Source: a virus (Duplodnaviria > Heunggongvirae > Uroviricota > Caudoviricetes). Taken from it: a stretch of 27,380 nucleotides of DNA. Where the stretch lies: IMG/VR virus record IMGVR_UViG_3300010280_000022. One strand, written 5' to 3'. The notes under the pieces were generated by a model, which did no database searches, had not been told where the DNA came from, and was given only the letters and a program-made list of their open reading frames with translations. The translations under genes were made by a program, and so were the position numbers. Shown piece by piece: positions 1 to 22,086 of the stretch (positions within the stretch are counted from its first letter, which is position 1; every line of letters starts with the position of its first letter).

Positions 1-2420
1 CATATATTATTTGCCGACCTATGTACATACGTATTTACTATCGGCTTAGATGAAGATGAACCCTTAGCTCTCGAACCATCGATAAGACAGTCAGACACTG
101 ACATAAATCCTGAAACAAGGTTGTTACTCACATCCCAATCTATGGCCATTTTGTCAAAATAAACACTGCCAAGCATATATGTTTTTCCACCAGAATAGCC
201 TACAAACCTACGTAATACACCACCATAATGCTTGATGTAACTCCTAGTCATTCCTGATGTGATATTCATATATACAATATCCATATTGCACTCAATTCCG
301 TAAAGGCAAGATGCATATTCTGATATGTGTCCAACATAACATACAACTTTACATCCAGTTGATTCAGATGGAGTCAATTTAATTACAGGAATATCTCTTG
401 TAGATGCATCATGATATGAAATTGCCAACTCAAATCTTGCGTCTTTACCATTAAAAGTGCTACCAGTAAAATCTATCAACGACGGCATTTTAAAGTCACG
501 CAAAGGTGATGGCTGTGTTTTAAAGTTATTTTTAAATGATAAAATATTGAGTGTTACCTCAGAAGGCCAGTATATATTCGTCTGTACAATTATATTCTTC
601 GGAAGATGTAAAGTGCGCGGCTGGACAGGGTTCCCGGACGCGATAACATTGTCTGAACGACACAAAATCATATCCACCAAACCGGATGAACCCTCTGGAA
701 TACGAACGGATCCCCCACGGACTATGAAATCACCTTTATGTTCACCGTAATCCGTACGTACTCCAAACGGCCCTATGTGAGAATTGATGATCTGTGTTGC
801 CTCGTCGAACGCCCCAGTACCAACCAAGACGCCGCCAGGTATCCGACAATTATCAACAAGAATCTTTGAGCACCCATAGTGCATGTGAAAGCTATCAATA
901 TTACTGTCTCTCACAACTACATCCCTGCAATAGTTGCCGTCAATAGACCTCCACCCCTTACCCACTTCGCAGCCGATAAAAGTATGTTTAAGGGTGTACT
1001 CCATAGCTACGGTATAACGAGAATTATTATCCGTCTGCGTAATACCCGCACTCGTTAATCTCCAGTTAACTCCGTAGGTGGTAGAGCTACCAAAAATATT
1101 AGAATCTGTAGCTGTCATCCCCATGTCATTAAAGTAAACAACCTCAACATCAACTAAAGAACGTTGGATATCAAAAGCATAGCGTGAAAATTGACCAGTG
1201 AAACGCGGCAATACAATTTTATTACGCTTAGTTGGTAGCTTAAATAACGTACAAGTTACGGGGTCGTTGTAAGTATTTTTAAGACTGTAAGCCAATTCCC
1301 CTGGCTTAGTCATAAAGTTCACTTCACCTTTATATCTTGGGCTGAATACACCACCAATCAACCTATAGAGATCAACCTCTGTTGGACTTATTATTTTGAC
1401 GAGCGAATTACCCCACCCTGCTAAATCCTCAACACAAGAAAAAACTGAGGTTAACTCGTTCAATGGGTATGTTGATATATTAACTTCCTTTATATAATTA
1501 TCATCATCCCTTTCATCTTTATACACAACCTTTCCGTTTGTTAAGTGGAAAGTACAATTACTCAAATCAAAATCACCATATAGATATGTTTCTTTATCTA
1601 TGGTGAAAGTTAGTGGCGCGCTTGAGTATATTTTTATTGGTGTATTTTTATACTTATAAAATATAGCATTAAGCTGATCACTATTCCGCTCACCGTCTAG
1701 TGCGCTTATATCATATATATATAATCTGTTTTCTAATCCACCAATTAACTTATACCCATCAGGTTTAGCTAATTCAATTAGAACGTCTGAGGCAGATCCA
1801 GATGGTGGTAATACGACAAATGGATTACCATCATTATCAAAAGCAACCATCTTGTTTGCTCTTTCAATAGCATCAGGTAAGGAAGGTATTGATTCAGGAA
1901 CACGAAGAGTTTTGCTTAGATTGCTACCAGCAAGCGTATCCACGTAATTTTTTGTTGCCGCATCCTGCGGAAATCTGGGATCTCTCAGGTTACGAATATA
2001 ATTGTTCAAAGCATCATAATAATTAGCAATAAATGATGGTTTACGCAGAGCCAACCTGAACCAACTTCTAACCTGCTGTATCAGCATCGTCAGTTTATCG
2101 AATGCGTCTTCATGCACCTCAGCGAAGAACTTACCCTGGTTGCGCAGATCGGTATCCTGCGTAACCGGTAGCTCTCTTGATATAGAAATCTGATAACCGT
2201 TAACCAACGCCTTCGACAGAATTACATTGCCGCCGTTATACCCTCCCGCACCAGTGACTATGTAATCAGTATCAAGAATCAGCTCTGTGATGTTCTCGTT
2301 CAGGTCAACAACCTGCACTACTAAATCAGATTTCTGGAAAATCCTGAAGGTATAAGGGAATGTCGTTGTAACACCGTTACCGGTGTATTCGTTGTGGTCA
2401 ACTTCGGTTGAGACCGTCAT
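1..2420 (-). CDS. Tailspike / tail fibre protein, 3'-truncated by window edge (at least 806 aa); T7 gp17-like N-terminal anchor domain plus AT-rich divergent C-terminal region
   Basis: Minus frame open from ATG at 2420 (GGAG 8 nt upstream) to position 1; absent from ORF track because no stop lies in the window. N-terminus MTVSTEVDHNEYTGNGVTTTFPYTFRIF..LVVQVVDL..DTDYIV fits the conserved podovirus tail-fibre N-terminal pattern. Confidence 0.8.
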   Translation of the reverse strand, partial: MTVSTEVDHNEYTGNGVTTTFPYTFRIFQKSDLVVQVVDLNENITELILDTDYIVTGAGGYNGGNVILSKALVNGYQISISRELPVTQDTDLRNQGKFFAEVHEDAFDKLTMLIQQVRSWFRLALRKPSFIANYYDALNNYIRNLRDPRFPQDAATKNYVDTLAGSNLSKTLRVPESIPSLPDAIERANKMVAFDNDGNPFVVLPPSGSASDVLIELAKPDGYKLIGGLENRLYIYDISALDGERNSDQLNAIFYKYKNTPIKIYSSAPLTFTIDKETYLYGDFDLSNCTFHLTNGKVVYKDERDDDNYIKEVNISTYPLNELTSVFSCVEDLAGWGNSLVKIISPTEVDLYRLIGGVFSPRYKGEVNFMTKPGELAYSLKNTYNDPVTCTLFKLPTKRNKIVLPRFTGQFSRYAFDIQRSLVDVEVVYFNDMGMTATDSNIFGSSTTYGVNWRLTSAGITQTDNNSRYTVAMEYTLKHTFIGCEVGKGWRSIDGNYCRDVVVRDSNIDSFHMHYGCSKILVDNCRIPGGVLVGTGAFDEATQIINSHIGPFGVRTDYGEHKGDFIVRGGSVRIPEGSSGLVDMILCRSDNVIASGNPVQPRTLHLPKNIIVQTNIYWPSEVTLNILSFKNNFKTQPSPLRDFKMPSLIDFTGSTFNGKDARFELAISYHDASTRDIPVIKLTPSESTGCKVVCYVGHISEYASCLYGIECNMDIVYMNITSGMTRSYIKHYGGVLRRFVGYSGGKTYMLGSVYFDKMAIDWDVSNNLVSGFMSVSDCLIDGSRAKGSSSSKPIVNTYVHRSANNI

Positions 2421-3188: not shown

Positions 3189-3884
3189 ATGACAGCTACA
3201 AAAAGCACGTCCATTTTTTCTTTCGAATCCCAAGCCGATATACGGGTAATCGTCATTAATGGTGAGCCATGGTTTATCGCTTCAGATGTTTGTCGGGCTA
3301 TAGGCATAGCAAACCATCGAGATGCTGTTCGAAAACTTGATGATGATGAGAAGGGCGTCGCTTCAACCGACACCCCTGGCGGTGAGCAAGAATCGATCAT
3401 CATCTCCGAGTCAGGCCTCTACACACTGATCCTCCGCTGCCGCGATGCGGTGACACCAGGCACTATCCCATACCGCTTTCGTAAATGGGTTACAGGTGAG
3501 GTTCTTCCTCAGATCCGCCGCACCGGAAGTTACATTAAAAACTCGCTCACGCAGGAAGAACGCATAAAGATGGTTGCCGACCAGGTAGCCAACGCCACGG
3601 CGTCAGCAGTGATGCAGGCGATGAAGATAGAGAACAAAACCTACAGTGCCCCACTGAAGCCCGGCTACCGCAGCCTGATTCATTCGCCGTCTGGTGTTCT
3701 CGGCCTGACGGAGAACTCACTGCTGATGAATTTGCTGAACCAGTTACAGGAAGACGGGCACGATGTATCGGGCGCGGCGGCGGAACTGACCACCATGTTC
3801 TGCTACATCGTCGGTGTGAGCAAATGCCTGCGTGATATCCAGACTCACGCGGAGTACATCAACGACAAAGCAGGATTCTTCTGA
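3189..3884 (+). CDS. Bro-N family phage antirepressor (231 aa)
   Basis: N-terminal IRVIVINGEPWFIASDVCRAIGI...LDDDEKGV is the Bro-N/antirepressor signature; AAAAGG upstream of ATG; long structured leader. Confidence 0.8.
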   Translation: MTATKSTSIFSFESQADIRVIVINGEPWFIASDVCRAIGIANHRDAVRKLDDDEKGVASTDTPGGEQESIIISESGLYTLILRCRDAVTPGTIPYRFRKWVTGEVLPQIRRTGSYIKNSLTQEERIKMVADQVANATASAVMQAMKIENKTYSAPLKPGYRSLIHSPSGVLGLTENSLLMNLLNQLQEDGHDVSGAAAELTTMFCYIVGVSKCLRDIQTHAEYINDKAGFF

Positions 3885-4102: not shown

Positions 4103-4642
4103 GTGTTAAGTGAAGAAATGCAATTTGCCATGGCTGTGGCTCAAATCGTAAGTGCAGTCGCGGTTTCGCTTGGCTTGTTCATAGCTATCGCTACTATTAT
4201 TTATAATGTAAATACAGCGAGAAAAGTACACACTTCAGTATTCCTTGGTGAAAGCAGGTTTGATGTAGATTATAAGAAAGGCCTATCTACTATGCGCCGC
4301 ATTCACGAATCGAACAAATCATTCCGCTCTTATATGTATCCAAGCAATGGGCAGGCTGATCTTACGGATGAAGAAAAGATAGAGAAGAGAGAAATAATTT
4401 ACTGTCTAGGTTTCTACGAACGCATGGCTGTGAGCGTGAAGCGGAAAACTTATGATGAGACCATGATTAAGGAAGTATTTTACAGCTCCGTTGTAAATAA
4501 CTATCAGATTGCGCTACCTCTTATACAAGCTATTAGAGAAAAAGAAAACATAAACACATATTTTAAAGAATATGAATGGTTGGCCACACGATGGAAGGAT
4601 TGTCCATTGAAAGATAAATCCCCGTGGTACAAGTTTTGGTAA
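4103..4642 (+). CDS. AT-rich inner-membrane protein (179 aa; one N-terminal TM helix); candidate superinfection-exclusion/defence moron
   Basis: GTG start with GGAG 6 nt upstream (alternative ATG at 4118); hydrophobic segment FAMAVAQIVSAVAVSLGLFIAIATIIY; AT-rich codon usage unlike the flanking structural genes; strong terminator follows. Confidence 0.7.
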   Translation: MLSEEMQFAMAVAQIVSAVAVSLGLFIAIATIIYNVNTARKVHTSVFLGESRFDVDYKKGLSTMRRIHESNKSFRSYMYPSNGQADLTDEEKIEKREIIYCLGFYERMAVSVKRKTYDETMIKEVFYSSVVNNYQIALPLIQAIREKENINTYFKEYEWLATRWKDCPLKDKSPWYKFW

Positions 4643-4663
4643 GCCCGCGACGCGGGCTTTTTT
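4643..4663 (+). terminator. Rho-independent terminator after the membrane-protein gene
   Basis: GCCCGCG..CGCGGGC hairpin immediately after TAA, followed by six T. Confidence 0.7.
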
Positions 4664-4735
4664 GTGGACGAAACAAAAGTCAGTGCTACACTCATTGACG
4701 CCACATTGAGGTGGCTTATAGATGGAAATTTCACA

Positions 4736-4897
4736 ATGAAAAAAGCATTTGCTGCACTGTTCGTTTTGTTGTCTCTGGTAGCTTCAACTCAGGCCTTTGC
4801 CGGTCGTTGTCAGCACGACAGCGATACTGCCGCTGACGGCTCCCGCTGCGGTGGGCGTTCTGCGGATTCCCGCCCGGGCGGCGGTGGCATTCGTTAA
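4736..4897 (+). CDS. Small secreted peptide (53 aa; signal peptide plus ~31-aa Gly/Arg/Asp-rich mature part with 2 Cys)
   Basis: MKKAFAALFVLLSLVASTQAFA is a typical Sec signal with AXA site; upstream TTGACG (4695-4700), 16-bp spacer, TATAGA. ORF-track N-terminal extension from 4664 rejected. Confidence 0.5.
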   Translation: MKKAFAALFVLLSLVASTQAFAGRCQHDSDTAADGSRCGGRSADSRPGGGGIR

Positions 4898-4919
4898 AAA
4901 CAAGGCCGCGAAAGCGGCC
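4891..4919 (-). terminator. Terminator at the end of the minus-strand late operon
   Basis: Hairpin GGCCGC-GAAA-GCGGCC (4904-4919); on the minus strand it is followed by TTGTTTTTAACGA. Confidence 0.6.
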
Positions 4920-4933
4920 TGTGACATGTCACA

Positions 4934-5494
4934 CTACATTGATATATGATTCATAAAGTAGCTTAAAGATTTACTTCCCAGAAAAGAAATTTCTTTTCCT
5001 GGATATGTCGCAATAATTGAGCATGACTTATCCCCGTTAGAGGTAACAAATCCTGAATAACCTACTTGTTCTTTACCATTTTGTTGCTTGGCTAAAAAGT
5101 AGAGGTAGCTTATCTTTTTGCCCTCTGGGTAAAACTCTGCCAAACCAGTATCGGTGATTGAATATTTTATTCTCCCGCCTTGAGTAACGTTTTCCATCTC
5201 AAGTTTAGCTATGTCTTTTCTGTTGTATTCAGCATTGATTTTCCTTTCGAAATCAATGTTGTTTTCAAATGAGTAGGAAGCAACAGTCTGAATAGATGGG
5301 AACACGTTTATCTGGATGCCTCCACAGTCGGCACAGGTATAAAGGTATGAATCAGATGGAATCCCCATAAAAGAAAACTGAGTTACCTTAAATTTATCGC
5401 TATCTCCAAAGTATTGAAGTTCGCATTTAACATTTTGCCCTGCAAAAGAAAATGCAGACATCAATATTGAAACAAAAAATATAATTGCCTTCAT
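4934..5494 (-). CDS. AT-rich secreted/periplasmic protein (186 aa), last gene of the late operon; function unknown
   Basis: Signal peptide MKAIIFFVSILMSAFSFA; four Cys; ATG 3 nt after the stop of the upstream 850-aa gene; composition much more AT-rich than the core genes. Confidence 0.7.
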   Translation of the reverse strand: MKAIIFFVSILMSAFSFAGQNVKCELQYFGDSDKFKVTQFSFMGIPSDSYLYTCADCGGIQINVFPSIQTVASYSFENNIDFERKINAEYNRKDIAKLEMENVTQGGRIKYSITDTGLAEFYPEGKKISYLYFLAKQQNGKEQVGYSGFVTSNGDKSCSIIATYPGKEISFLGSKSLSYFMNHISM

Positions 5495-5496
5495 TA

Positions 5497-8049
5497 TTAT
5501 TTACCTAGCATGAACTGCGATGGTGGGATCAGAAAGCCGTTACCCTGCTCACGCTCAACACGGCGCTGATAACGCTCAAGAGAGCCTGGGTCAAGGGCAT
5601 CTTGTATCCGGTTCAATATTAAACCATTCATCGCCGTACGAAGCCAGAACACGTTGAGGAATGGCGTATTGTCAAGTGCCGTGCGATACCAGTCACCCAA
5701 ATCTGCATCCCCTCTCGTGGTCTGCTGGAGCAGCGTGATAATGCTGTCAGCGTTCGATGCTGCTGGCCCCATTAGCGACGTAACCGGCCCGGCCCCCATG
5801 CGGTTGACCTCGCCAAACATGAAGTCACCCAAGATGCCAAGACCGCCCCCCTGAGATGCGGCTGCGAGAAACGTCTTGGCATCTGCCGGGCGTGGTGTTT
5901 GCCCTTTCAGCATGAGTTTTGACTGCATGGAGATATAACCAAACATAGTCGCCCAGACAAAGAGGTTTGCAGCACCAAGGAAAGCCCCCTTCCCGTTACG
6001 TAGCAGCGCATTCGTCAGCGATCCGGTTTTCGACTCACCAAGCCCAGCAGGAATATAACCACGCCCGAATACTTCGCGTCCTAGTACGTTCTGCATGAAG
6101 CTTGCAGTGAACGATTTGTACTGACCAGCGAATCGTATTGCTTCCCCAGCCACCGTTCCTGGCACCGTGCCCATCTTCATAAACGCCTGCGTGCGATCGC
6201 CAGGCTCTGACATGGCGATATTCAGGCGGTCAAGGATGTAGCCGCGCAACTGCCCTTCCAATTGATCGCGTGCGTCAGCGATAGCGCGCTGCGTTGGTTT
6301 GATCCCCTTACTCTCTACATAACCGGCAATCACTTCGTCAGGCACGCCGCGGATGCCGCTGGTCGTCATGAACTTACGACCTTCGCTATCGGCCATGTCC
6401 ATGTTGCGAAAAATTTCCCACTCACGTTCGCCAATACCGTGCAGATCCAGCACGCGTCGCAGGTCTTCCGGTAGCCGCGCATGAGACTGGTCAGCATTCT
6501 TTGCAAGCCAGTTGGTTATCATCATGGCGTTGCTGTTGCGACCGCTCTCGGTCCAGAAGTTCATGAGGTTGTACTTAAAGAAAAGCTGCTGCGCGCGACC
6601 AAGCTTTCCATTCAGCGTGTCATCACCAGATATGCGCCGGATGATTTCCTGCGTCATGGAGTCGGAATAAACTCCGATAGAGGAAAGGATCTCTTTCTGC
6701 TCCGCGCTGTTGTAACGCGTGAAGCGGCCTCTCATAGCACCAAGCAACGCCTGCATAAAATTCTGCCCTTGGTAGCGCATCTCGGTAGCGGCGATAGGCA
6801 CGTCGTTAAACGATGAGATTACCGCGCCACCAAGTTGGCTCATACGCAACCAGCCGCGTACAGCCGCCGACGCATTGGCCCAGCCTACGCTGCCAGGAAT
6901 ATTTAGCGAGCCGTCAACCTGCGGCATTACGGTACGGTTAATGCGACGCACCTTCGTCATGTAGTCAGCCAACGCTGCCGGTCTTCCGGATTTGCTGATA
7001 TCTTCAGCAATGGCGTCCGTCAGGTACTTAAACATGTTCTGTGGGTTAGTGCCCAGTACGCGCATCATGCCCGTTGTGCGGGCAGCGCTGTTTAAGCCAC
7101 CAAACAGCGCTTCTCGCAGGCTGCCGGTGCCGAATTGCTGGTTGTACTCGTGCCAAGAGATACCATCTTTGAAGTGCAAAATTCGCTCTTGGCTGGCGCG
7201 TTTAGCTGCGTTCGCCGATCCCTTAAAGCCATTCATCCAATCGGGCTTTTCAGATGTAAGATGCACGCCGGAAGCCAGCCCGTTATAAATGTTACGCATG
7301 AACTGCTCGCGGTCAGCCACGCCGTCAAAAGTGCGCTCATCAAGGCGCGGGAGAATAGCATTTCGCCATGCATCATAACCTGCGGCGCGGATCTTCATGA
7401 TGTCGTGTGACTGGCGCACTATATAGCCCGGCTCTTTGCGTATCCATGCCCCGGCGCGGTTCTCATCAATGCGCGCAGTTTCCTGCCATTTCATGATGAT
7501 TTGTGCAGCGCTTACGGATTGCTTTGTCATACCGTCAGTTGACTGCCCGCGCCCTATGCGCCACATTGCATCGGCAATTTCCCGGTCATTGCTGCCGCTG
7601 GCGATGAATTGCACCAGCCCGGCACGGTCAAAATCGTAGTTGATACCGGAATGATACTTGCCGCGCAGTTGCGCCACCTCCGAAGATACCGACCGGCGGG
7701 CGCCGGTACGCGCATCGTTGCGGCCAACCAGCATTGCTTCAAGCCCGATATCCGGGCGGTCTTTCCAGATAGTACGAAGCTCTCTAAGTCGTTGTGCGGC
7801 AATACGGGCGTTGATTGCCTTATTGCGAGCCTCAATCTGTTTTGCCAGCATATCGGCATTGCTCAGTTCTTCCGCTGCGCGCATCGCGGCCTCTTCCAGA
7901 GACAGCGCCTCATTGGTCGCCAGAATTCGCCTAGTGGTGTCGTTCATGTCACGCACCAGCGACTCCATCTCATCGGAAGAAAGCTCGCGACCAGCGGCAG
8001 CATTTACACTGCGCTCGCACTGCGTCAAAAATTCGTTTGCTGCCATCAC
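5497..8049 (-). CDS. Internal virion/ejection protein (850 aa; T7 gp16-like position)
   Basis: Long ORF overlapping start/stop with neighbours, in the block between tail-tube genes and tailspike. Confidence 0.7.
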   Translation of the reverse strand: MMAANEFLTQCERSVNAAAGRELSSDEMESLVRDMNDTTRRILATNEALSLEEAAMRAAEELSNADMLAKQIEARNKAINARIAAQRLRELRTIWKDRPDIGLEAMLVGRNDARTGARRSVSSEVAQLRGKYHSGINYDFDRAGLVQFIASGSNDREIADAMWRIGRGQSTDGMTKQSVSAAQIIMKWQETARIDENRAGAWIRKEPGYIVRQSHDIMKIRAAGYDAWRNAILPRLDERTFDGVADREQFMRNIYNGLASGVHLTSEKPDWMNGFKGSANAAKRASQERILHFKDGISWHEYNQQFGTGSLREALFGGLNSAARTTGMMRVLGTNPQNMFKYLTDAIAEDISKSGRPAALADYMTKVRRINRTVMPQVDGSLNIPGSVGWANASAAVRGWLRMSQLGGAVISSFNDVPIAATEMRYQGQNFMQALLGAMRGRFTRYNSAEQKEILSSIGVYSDSMTQEIIRRISGDDTLNGKLGRAQQLFFKYNLMNFWTESGRNSNAMMITNWLAKNADQSHARLPEDLRRVLDLHGIGEREWEIFRNMDMADSEGRKFMTTSGIRGVPDEVIAGYVESKGIKPTQRAIADARDQLEGQLRGYILDRLNIAMSEPGDRTQAFMKMGTVPGTVAGEAIRFAGQYKSFTASFMQNVLGREVFGRGYIPAGLGESKTGSLTNALLRNGKGAFLGAANLFVWATMFGYISMQSKLMLKGQTPRPADAKTFLAAASQGGGLGILGDFMFGEVNRMGAGPVTSLMGPAASNADSIITLLQQTTRGDADLGDWYRTALDNTPFLNVFWLRTAMNGLILNRIQDALDPGSLERYQRRVEREQGNGFLIPPSQFMLGK

Positions 8050-22009: not shown

Positions 22010-22086
22010 GTGGCATTAGCTCAGTCGGACAGAGCAACCGCCTTCTAAGCGGTTGGTCGCAGGTTCGAATCCTGCATGCCACGCCA
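22010..22086 (+). tRNA. tRNA-Arg (anticodon UCU, reads AGA), phage-type
   Basis: Acceptor stem GTGGCAT/ATGCCAC, D-arm AGCTCAGTCGGACAGAGC, anticodon loop CTTCTAA, T-arm GCAGGTTCGAATCCTGC, discriminator G plus CCA. Confidence 0.85.

Follow-up and report, generated by a model that had tools for sequence, protein, structure and literature searches.

The tailspike gene at the edge of the DNA analysed here is a mosaic, in which an anchor of the Uetakevirus type is joined to a receptor-binding body that has a distribution of its own. Throughout the text, "the window" denotes the whole stretch of 27,380 nucleotides. Two nested boundaries were found in the gene, one at codon ~110-130 and the other at codon ~216-220, and the body following the second one is predicted to fold as a right-handed parallel beta-helix. 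A first-pass annotation of this DNA had proposed a horizontal swap of the receptor-binding domain; the separate distribution of the parts, with the body being 96% identical in DNA behind an anchor of the PF09008 type, bears this out. The gene very probably encodes the single tailspike, mosaic in build, of a temperate E. coli podovirus similar to phiV10 and epsilon15 (Uetakevirus type).

The spike gene and its host phage

The main parts of the gene, with positions given as those of the window, are as follows.

2420 (ATG) to position 1, minus strand: tailspike ORF, 806 codons plus two bases, no stop
2046..2420, minus strand: proximal anchor, codons 1-125, Uetakevirus (phiV10/epsilon15-type), core-like codon usage
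1773..2045, minus strand: distal anchor, codons 126-216, phiV10-homologous, a diverged and very AT-rich version
3..1772, minus strand: receptor-binding body, codons 217-806, predicted right-handed parallel beta-helix depolymerase, truncated with 38 codons missing

As had been noted before, the gene runs off the window, the reading frame that starts at 2420 being still open at position 1, and for this reason the spike is missing from the ORF list. A full-length twin encoded by an E. coli draft genome (P0001, locus L004) is 844 amino acids long and 99.1% identical, and hence 38 codons of the spike fall outside the window. P0001 is already present in NCBI as a "hypothetical protein", 98% identical end to end.

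Window positions 2421-27380 share ~97.6% DNA identity, over 54-59% of the length, with Uetakevirus-type phages that include phiV10, the O157 typing phages 9 and 10, TL-2011b and PAS61. The genes in this region are ordered as in phiV10: those for large virion/structural proteins are followed by Bro-N and epsilon15p19-like genes on the opposite strand and then by the spike, which therefore occupies the same genomic position as phiV10 gp25 and epsilon15 gp20. Two features by which a Uetakevirus tailspike is recognised, anchor homology and genome position, were both found for the window spike. In phiV10 the spike is followed by an O-acetyltransferase gene, whereas the twin locus L004 lacks such a gene after the spike. 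A sigma-70 promoter scan of the region upstream of the spike (2421-2600) gave no minus-strand site, a result that is uninformative, and PADLOC gave zero matches in the accessory genes nearby.

Residues 1-227 of the spike are 78% identical in protein to the anchor of phiV10 gp25, and similarity to gp25 was not detectable past residue ~227. The first 205 amino acids of phiV10 gp25 have been taken as the Uetakevirus anchor (PMC10408124). Among the PHROG tail fibre/spike families, 25 matched the N-terminus of the window protein, most of them within residues 1-160 or 1-230 alone; in the PDB, residues 1-128 matched domain 1 of Dpo31 (E 4.7e-24) and residues 135-229 matched a KN1 capsule depolymerase (E 1.4e-9). 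The P22 head-binding domain PF09008 was searched for in the window protein and was not found; the homologues P0002-P0009 do have it. The first ~150 residues had been described in the first-pass annotation as a conserved anchor of core-like composition. Conservation and composition were both confirmed, with the composition break at codon ~125, but the anchor is longer than was thought: by homology it reaches residue ~216-227, so that the composition break falls inside it.

Codon usage changes within the anchor

The spike gene has a GC content of 0.395, which is below that of the window (0.497) and that of 12 structural (core) genes (0.531). GC3 is 0.54 in codons 1-125 (core genes, 0.56), 0.22 in codons 126-317, with a value of 0.17 in codons 162-220, and 0.36 in codons 318-806. 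The best single change point in GC3 lies after codon 125, and its likelihood gain was reached in none of 500 permutations. Codon usage in codons 151-806 differs from that of the core genes (chi-square P = 2.5e-30), whereas for codons 1-150 the same comparison gave P = 0.096. When sliding windows of 60 codons were used, 7 of the 38 windows in the spike fell below the minimum of the 241 core-gene windows, in agreement with the AT-rich stretch noticed in the first-pass annotation. The preference for AAT, ATA and TTA that it had noted was also confirmed.

AAT share of Asn: codons 151-806, 0.72; codons 1-150, 0.25; core genes, 0.35
ATA share of Ile: codons 151-806, 0.44; codons 1-150, 0.30; core genes, 0.10
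TTA share of Leu: codons 151-806, 0.32; codons 1-150, 0.07; core genes, 0.05

Likewise, 7 of the 12 Leu residues in codons 1-125 are encoded by CTG and none of the 41 in codons 217-806, and AGA plus AGG account for 17 of 34 Arg codons, compared with 24 of 315 in the core genes. The composition shift is therefore one of synonymous codon choice.

The AT-richness that had been ascribed to the rest of the gene holds for most of it but is not uniform. The body contains the following patch.

600..1100, minus strand: GC-richer patch in the body, codons 441-607, GC 0.47, GC3 0.46 (GC3 of the flanks, 0.28-0.29)

The rise in GC3 over this patch is limited to the window, its twin and the L001 lineage, and is absent in the homologues of phages ECO1230-10, P433.1, Paul and PM16. 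Amino-acid composition was considered as its cause and ruled out, given that GC3 rises too and does so in one lineage only. Judged from the alignment, the patch covers the most conserved, probably catalytic, core of the predicted depolymerase.

The bodies of the other Uetakevirus-type spikes that were checked (phiV10, CE0021a and CP8-3) are AT-rich too, with a GC3 of 0.28-0.32, and AT-richness alone can therefore not date the swap. The low GC content may reflect a shared pool of modules and not a datable import.

Two nested boundaries

Comparison with the Uetakevirus-type spikes L005 (CE0021a) and L006 (CP8-3) of E. coli prophages revealed DNA identity of ~100% up to gene nucleotide ~330-390, after which it drops abruptly to 60-75%. 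This recombination break falls where GC3 changes (codon 125) and lies directly 3' of a highly conserved stretch, FFAEVHEDAFDKLTMLIQQVRSW (codons 98-120). The distal anchor that follows is 60-77% identical in DNA to L005, L006 and phiV10.

The second boundary is located at a conserved linker.

1737..1775, minus strand: junction motif ELAKPDGYKLIGG, codons 216-228, module exchange boundary between anchor types

Homology to the Uetakevirus-type spike L006 stops at gene nucleotide 647 (window 1774), and homology to L001, a P22-type spike, begins at gene nucleotide 658 (window 1763). In the protein the linker reads ELAKP/DGYKLIGG, and the alignment that starts at residue 216 corresponds to residue 121 of the P22-type spike. 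Variants of the junction motif are present at the same point in P0010, P0017, P0020 and P0028. P0020 combines a Uetakevirus-type anchor with a body of the same family and is 61-79% identical along its length, which indicates that the fusion of body and anchor predates the break at codon ~125.

P0010 and P0017 show, by eye, an alternation of diverged stretches with others that seem near-identical to the protein of the window. Together with the GC3 patch limited to one lineage, this alternation points to further recombination within the module.

Distribution and relatives of the receptor-binding body

The anchor and the body have separate distributions, as appeared when the two parts were searched separately, a check that the first-pass annotation had suggested. 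Out of 5,426 complete genomes of E. coli, ~496 have the anchor; the body was found in the same set in three records that represent two strains, always behind PF09008 in a P22-like prophage. A search of 5.8 billion proteins with the body yielded 40 clusters, and HMMER gave just 28 matches at E <= 0.001 among 1.84 billion cluster representatives, from which we conclude that the body family is small. The anchors found with this body are of the Uetakevirus type (P0001 and P0020), PF09008, PF18668-containing and others. Besides the P22-type anchor, no fewer than four other anchor types carry the body, in phages of Escherichia, Enterobacter and Proteus.

A close relative with another anchor is the tailspike WP_338846156.1 of a P22-like (Lederbergvirus) prophage in E. 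coli JX21CE33. From residue 216 to the end of the window the two bodies share 95% protein identity and 96% DNA identity, whereas the anchor of the prophage spike is PF09008 (residues 1-113), which is unrelated to that of the window spike. The first ~40 body residues of the P22-like spike are more diverged, with 56-79% DNA identity to the window. The same body family is found in the spikes of four lytic-type phages, with protein identities that cover essentially the full length of the body: 69% for Orf17 of Escherichia phage vB_EcoM_ECO1230-10 (Jilinvirus), which is annotated as "tail spike protein" and has an anchor containing PF18668, 58% for P433.1 (Vectrevirus), 55% for Paul (Kuravirus) and 42% for Proteus phage PM16 (Novosibovirus). 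These four phages differ from the window phage in their anchors (PF18668, phiEco32-type and others), morphotypes and lifestyles, and their spikes have a GC3 profile that is higher or flatter than that of the window spike. A literature search did not find a published substrate for the spikes of ECO1230-10, P433.1, Paul or PM16. Exchange of receptor domains among the tailspikes of eight phage genera, Uetake- and Lederbergviruses included, has been described (PMC10408124).

Predicted fold of the body

We generated an AlphaFold2 monomer model from an alignment of 34 sequences. Residues 235-844 were modelled with a pLDDT of ~90; the N-terminal 230 residues had a pLDDT below 50 and are unreliable. 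In the model the body is a right-handed parallel beta-helix, the fold that defines beta-helix tailspike depolymerases and that had been anticipated for the C-terminal part. The closest solved structures were the following.

Klebsiella K64-ORF41 (8x8m), score 23.2
Pseudomonas phi297 gp61 (4ru5), score 22.9
Acinetobacter AP22 gp54 (4y9v), score 22.9
LKA1 gp49 (4ru4), score 21.9

Pectin-lyase-fold enzymes rank behind these four proteins, and Foldseek concurs in selecting 8x8m (E 3.3e-15). The identity of the body to the solved beta-helix depolymerases 8x8m, 4ru5, 4ru4 and 4y9v is just 10-13%, without a match at the sequence level, and their mechanism and substrate are not transferable to it.

Searches of Pfam, NCBIfam and the PDB, both with the single sequence and with a profile, left the body uncovered, all matches being confined to the N-terminal part. 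PF12708 and related pectate-lyase-like Pfam families gave no significant match to the body; remote relatives gave weak, mostly sub-threshold matches to PF12708, outside the region shared with the body. The alignment contains ~60 invariant positions, many of them Asp, Glu, Arg, His or Tyr, which are clustered in a conserved core. Those in codons 441-607 include W490, D494, R499, H514-Y515-G516, E540, R555, D557-Y558-G559-E560 and K562, among others. The protein would probably form a trimeric spike that binds and cleaves a polysaccharide.

Hosts and candidate substrates

E. coli JX21CE33 carries O174-family wzx/wzy genes and a wzzB pseudogene. Strain "numer 3", the other complete-genome host of the 96%-identical body, carries O54-family O-antigen genes and is not among the 26 genomes with wzx/wzy of the JX21CE33 type. 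The publication on JX21CE33 gives ST206 and phylogroup A and does not give a serotype. An O-antigen RBP subtype in the sense of PMC10408124 goes with one serogroup, and the body does not in these strains (n=2). A serogroup assignment from the prophage hosts was dropped, the two hosts with complete genomes differing in this respect (O174-family versus O54-family). Since the O-antigen clusters differ, the reading of one module for one serogroup is unsupported by this small sample; the two strains neither support nor exclude specificity for O-antigen.

We also considered Dpo42 (PMC5539073) as evidence on the substrate and rejected it, because its phage ECOO78 is absent from the tblastn matches of the body. 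The announcement of phage Paul gives E. coli 4s as host. The spike body of phiV10 is specific for O157 (PMC10408124).

Discussion

The results are best accounted for if residues 1 to ~216 constitute a genus-specific anchor that would fix a trimeric spike to the tail, and the region from residue ~217 onward an exchangeable beta-helix receptor module. The most likely role of this module is to bind and cleave a polysaccharide on the host surface, with O-antigen as a first guess, and cleavage would let the virion reach the outer membrane. The allele would have arisen from at least two layers of recombination. In the older one, the conserved ELAKP-GYKLIGG linker would have been the site at which the receptor-module family was fused to an anchor of the Uetakevirus type. 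In the recent one, homologous exchange in the conserved proximal anchor (codons ~110-130) would have coupled the AT-rich distal anchor and the body to a phiV10-like backbone. We infer the direction of each of these transfers.

It could be argued that the gene was inherited whole and that its AT-richness follows either from selection or from the amino-acid make-up of beta-helix spikes, which are rich in Asn, Ile, Tyr and Lys. The AT-rich bodies of three other Uetakevirus-type spikes are compatible with this explanation, and so is the end-to-end match of P0001 (98%), the kind of single homologue that the first-pass annotation had regarded as evidence against a swap. However, P0001 represents this very mosaic allele, carried by a different prophage of E. 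coli, and is hence no argument against a mosaic origin. Inheritance in one piece is at odds with the synonymous nature of the shift, seen in GC3 (from 0.54 to 0.22), in CTG usage (from 7 of 12 to 0 of 41) and in the AAT share of Asn (from 0.25 to 0.72), with its coincidence with the abrupt fall in DNA identity to the sister prophages, and with the 96% identity of the body to that of a spike with an unrelated anchor. Moreover, the ECO1230-10 homologue, whose locus has 52.5% GC, shows a GC3 of 0.36-0.53 over the same residues, so the protein does not force a low GC3. Inheritance in one piece is thus largely refuted, and we regard it as highly improbable.

For the mosaic spike, the nature of the polysaccharide and the activity of the body both allow other views. 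Instead of a serogroup-specific O-antigen, the target of the body may be a capsule or some other exopolysaccharide (K antigen, colanic acid or ECA). The two hosts of the 96%-identical body, with their O174-family and O54-family clusters, fit such a target, and so do the ranking of a Klebsiella K64 capsule depolymerase as the top structural neighbour and the action of AP22 gp54 on capsule. However, among Uetake- and Lederbergviruses the spikes that have been characterised have O-antigen as their target (PMC10408124). Two strains are too small a sample, and a prophage can outlast a switch of O-antigen. The tailspikes LKA1 gp49 and phi297 gp61 are also top neighbours, and LKA1 gp49 is an O-antigen lyase. 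We consider a capsule or exopolysaccharide target possible, if somewhat unlikely. Alternatively, the body could be a non-catalytic adhesin that binds a glycan without cleaving it: catalytic residues could not be assigned and there were zero matches to enzyme-family models. The clustering in the core of ~60 invariant positions, among them many Asp, Glu, Arg, His and Tyr, argues against this, as do the top fold matches, all of which are active depolymerases or lyases, and a mere adhesin seems quite unlikely to us. It is also conceivable, though we find it doubtful, that the body represents a small, uncharacterised clade of depolymerases whose substrate is either a glycan motif common to O54, O174 and others, or a polysaccharide other than O-antigen. 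If true, such a substrate would help to explain the presence of the module in six lineages of phages in Escherichia, Enterobacter and Proteus.

With an exchangeable receptor module as the preferred reading, the locus is a clear but ordinary example of phage host-range change. Conceptually it adds nothing new, as module exchange between tailspikes of Uetake- and Lederbergviruses is already documented (PMC10408124). What it does provide are exact junctions, for homologous exchange within the genus at codon ~125 and for exchange between anchor types at the ELAKP-GYKLIGG linker (codon ~217). These junctions could be of help in designing chimeric spikes, tailocins or reporter phages, for which their practical value would be modest. 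In addition, the locus flags what may be an uncharacterised family of depolymerases.

Variation within the receptor module of the tailspike

The visible tailspike allele (window 3-1772) was compared with that of its twin in an E. coli draft genome (locus L004, 8001-10535). The two genes differ at 22 codons, and 14 of these 22 differences are non-synonymous. All 14 lie within the receptor module, between residues 259 and 747, and the anchor is 100% identical in the two proteins. This distribution is consistent with ongoing diversification of the binding surface.

The receptor module also contains a GC-richer patch. On the minus strand, window 600-1100 has a GC3 of 0.46, versus ~0.28 on both flanks, and spans the best-conserved core of the module. 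The observation that this patch is limited to the window lineage and its P22-type sister suggests that it is a separate recombination patch inside the receptor module.

In E. coli JX21CE33, the host of the P22-type copy of the module, the annotation gives wzzB (O-antigen chain-length regulator; L010, 35974-36951) as a pseudogene, interrupted by an internal stop.

Genes flanking the tailspike

Two genes lie on the anchor side of the tailspike gene:
2598-2873, +, small epsilon15p19-like ORF, adjoining the tailspike gene
3189-3884, +, Bro-N protein

The product of the small ORF shares 43% identity (E 2e-16) with the last 74 residues of the adjacent Bro-N protein, a level of similarity that marks it as a free-standing paralogue of this C-terminal domain.

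Between these genes and the structural module, window 4103-5494 holds cargo with a GC content of 0.34-0.41:
4103-4642, +, DUF4760 protein
4664-4897, +, 77-aa ORF, secreted- or lipoprotein-like as judged by eye
4934-5494, -, 186-aa ORF whose N-terminus resembles a signal peptide by eye

By its ORF sizes and annotations, the stretch seems to vary among the relatives (the twin L004, CE0021a, the CP8-3 prophage and phiV10). A PADLOC scan of 4103-5494 gave no hits.

Gene content downstream of the tailspike gene also varies among relatives, as seen when L006 (E. coli CP8-3_Sichuan, 5729-7647) is compared with L004 and L003. In phiV10 an O-acetyltransferase gene follows the tailspike gene, whereas CP8-3_Sichuan has a DUF6056 gene and the GT2 gene yfdH, which are taken to be O-antigen glucosylation genes, and in the twin the tailspike gene is followed directly by holin genes. 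The corresponding region of the window falls past position 1.

Arginine codons of the tailspike and a phage-encoded tRNA

The phage encodes a tRNA for arginine:
22010-22086, +, tRNA-Arg, anticodon UCU

The visible part of the tailspike gene contains 12 AGA and 9 AGG codons. Within codons 126-806, the two codons together account for 17 of the 34 arginine codons, versus 24 of 315 in the twelve core structural genes; for AGA alone, the difference between tailspike and core genes gives a Fisher P of ~1e-5. A tRNA-Arg is present in related typing phages too. The one encoded here may compensate for the rare-codon load of AT-rich swapped-in tailspike modules.
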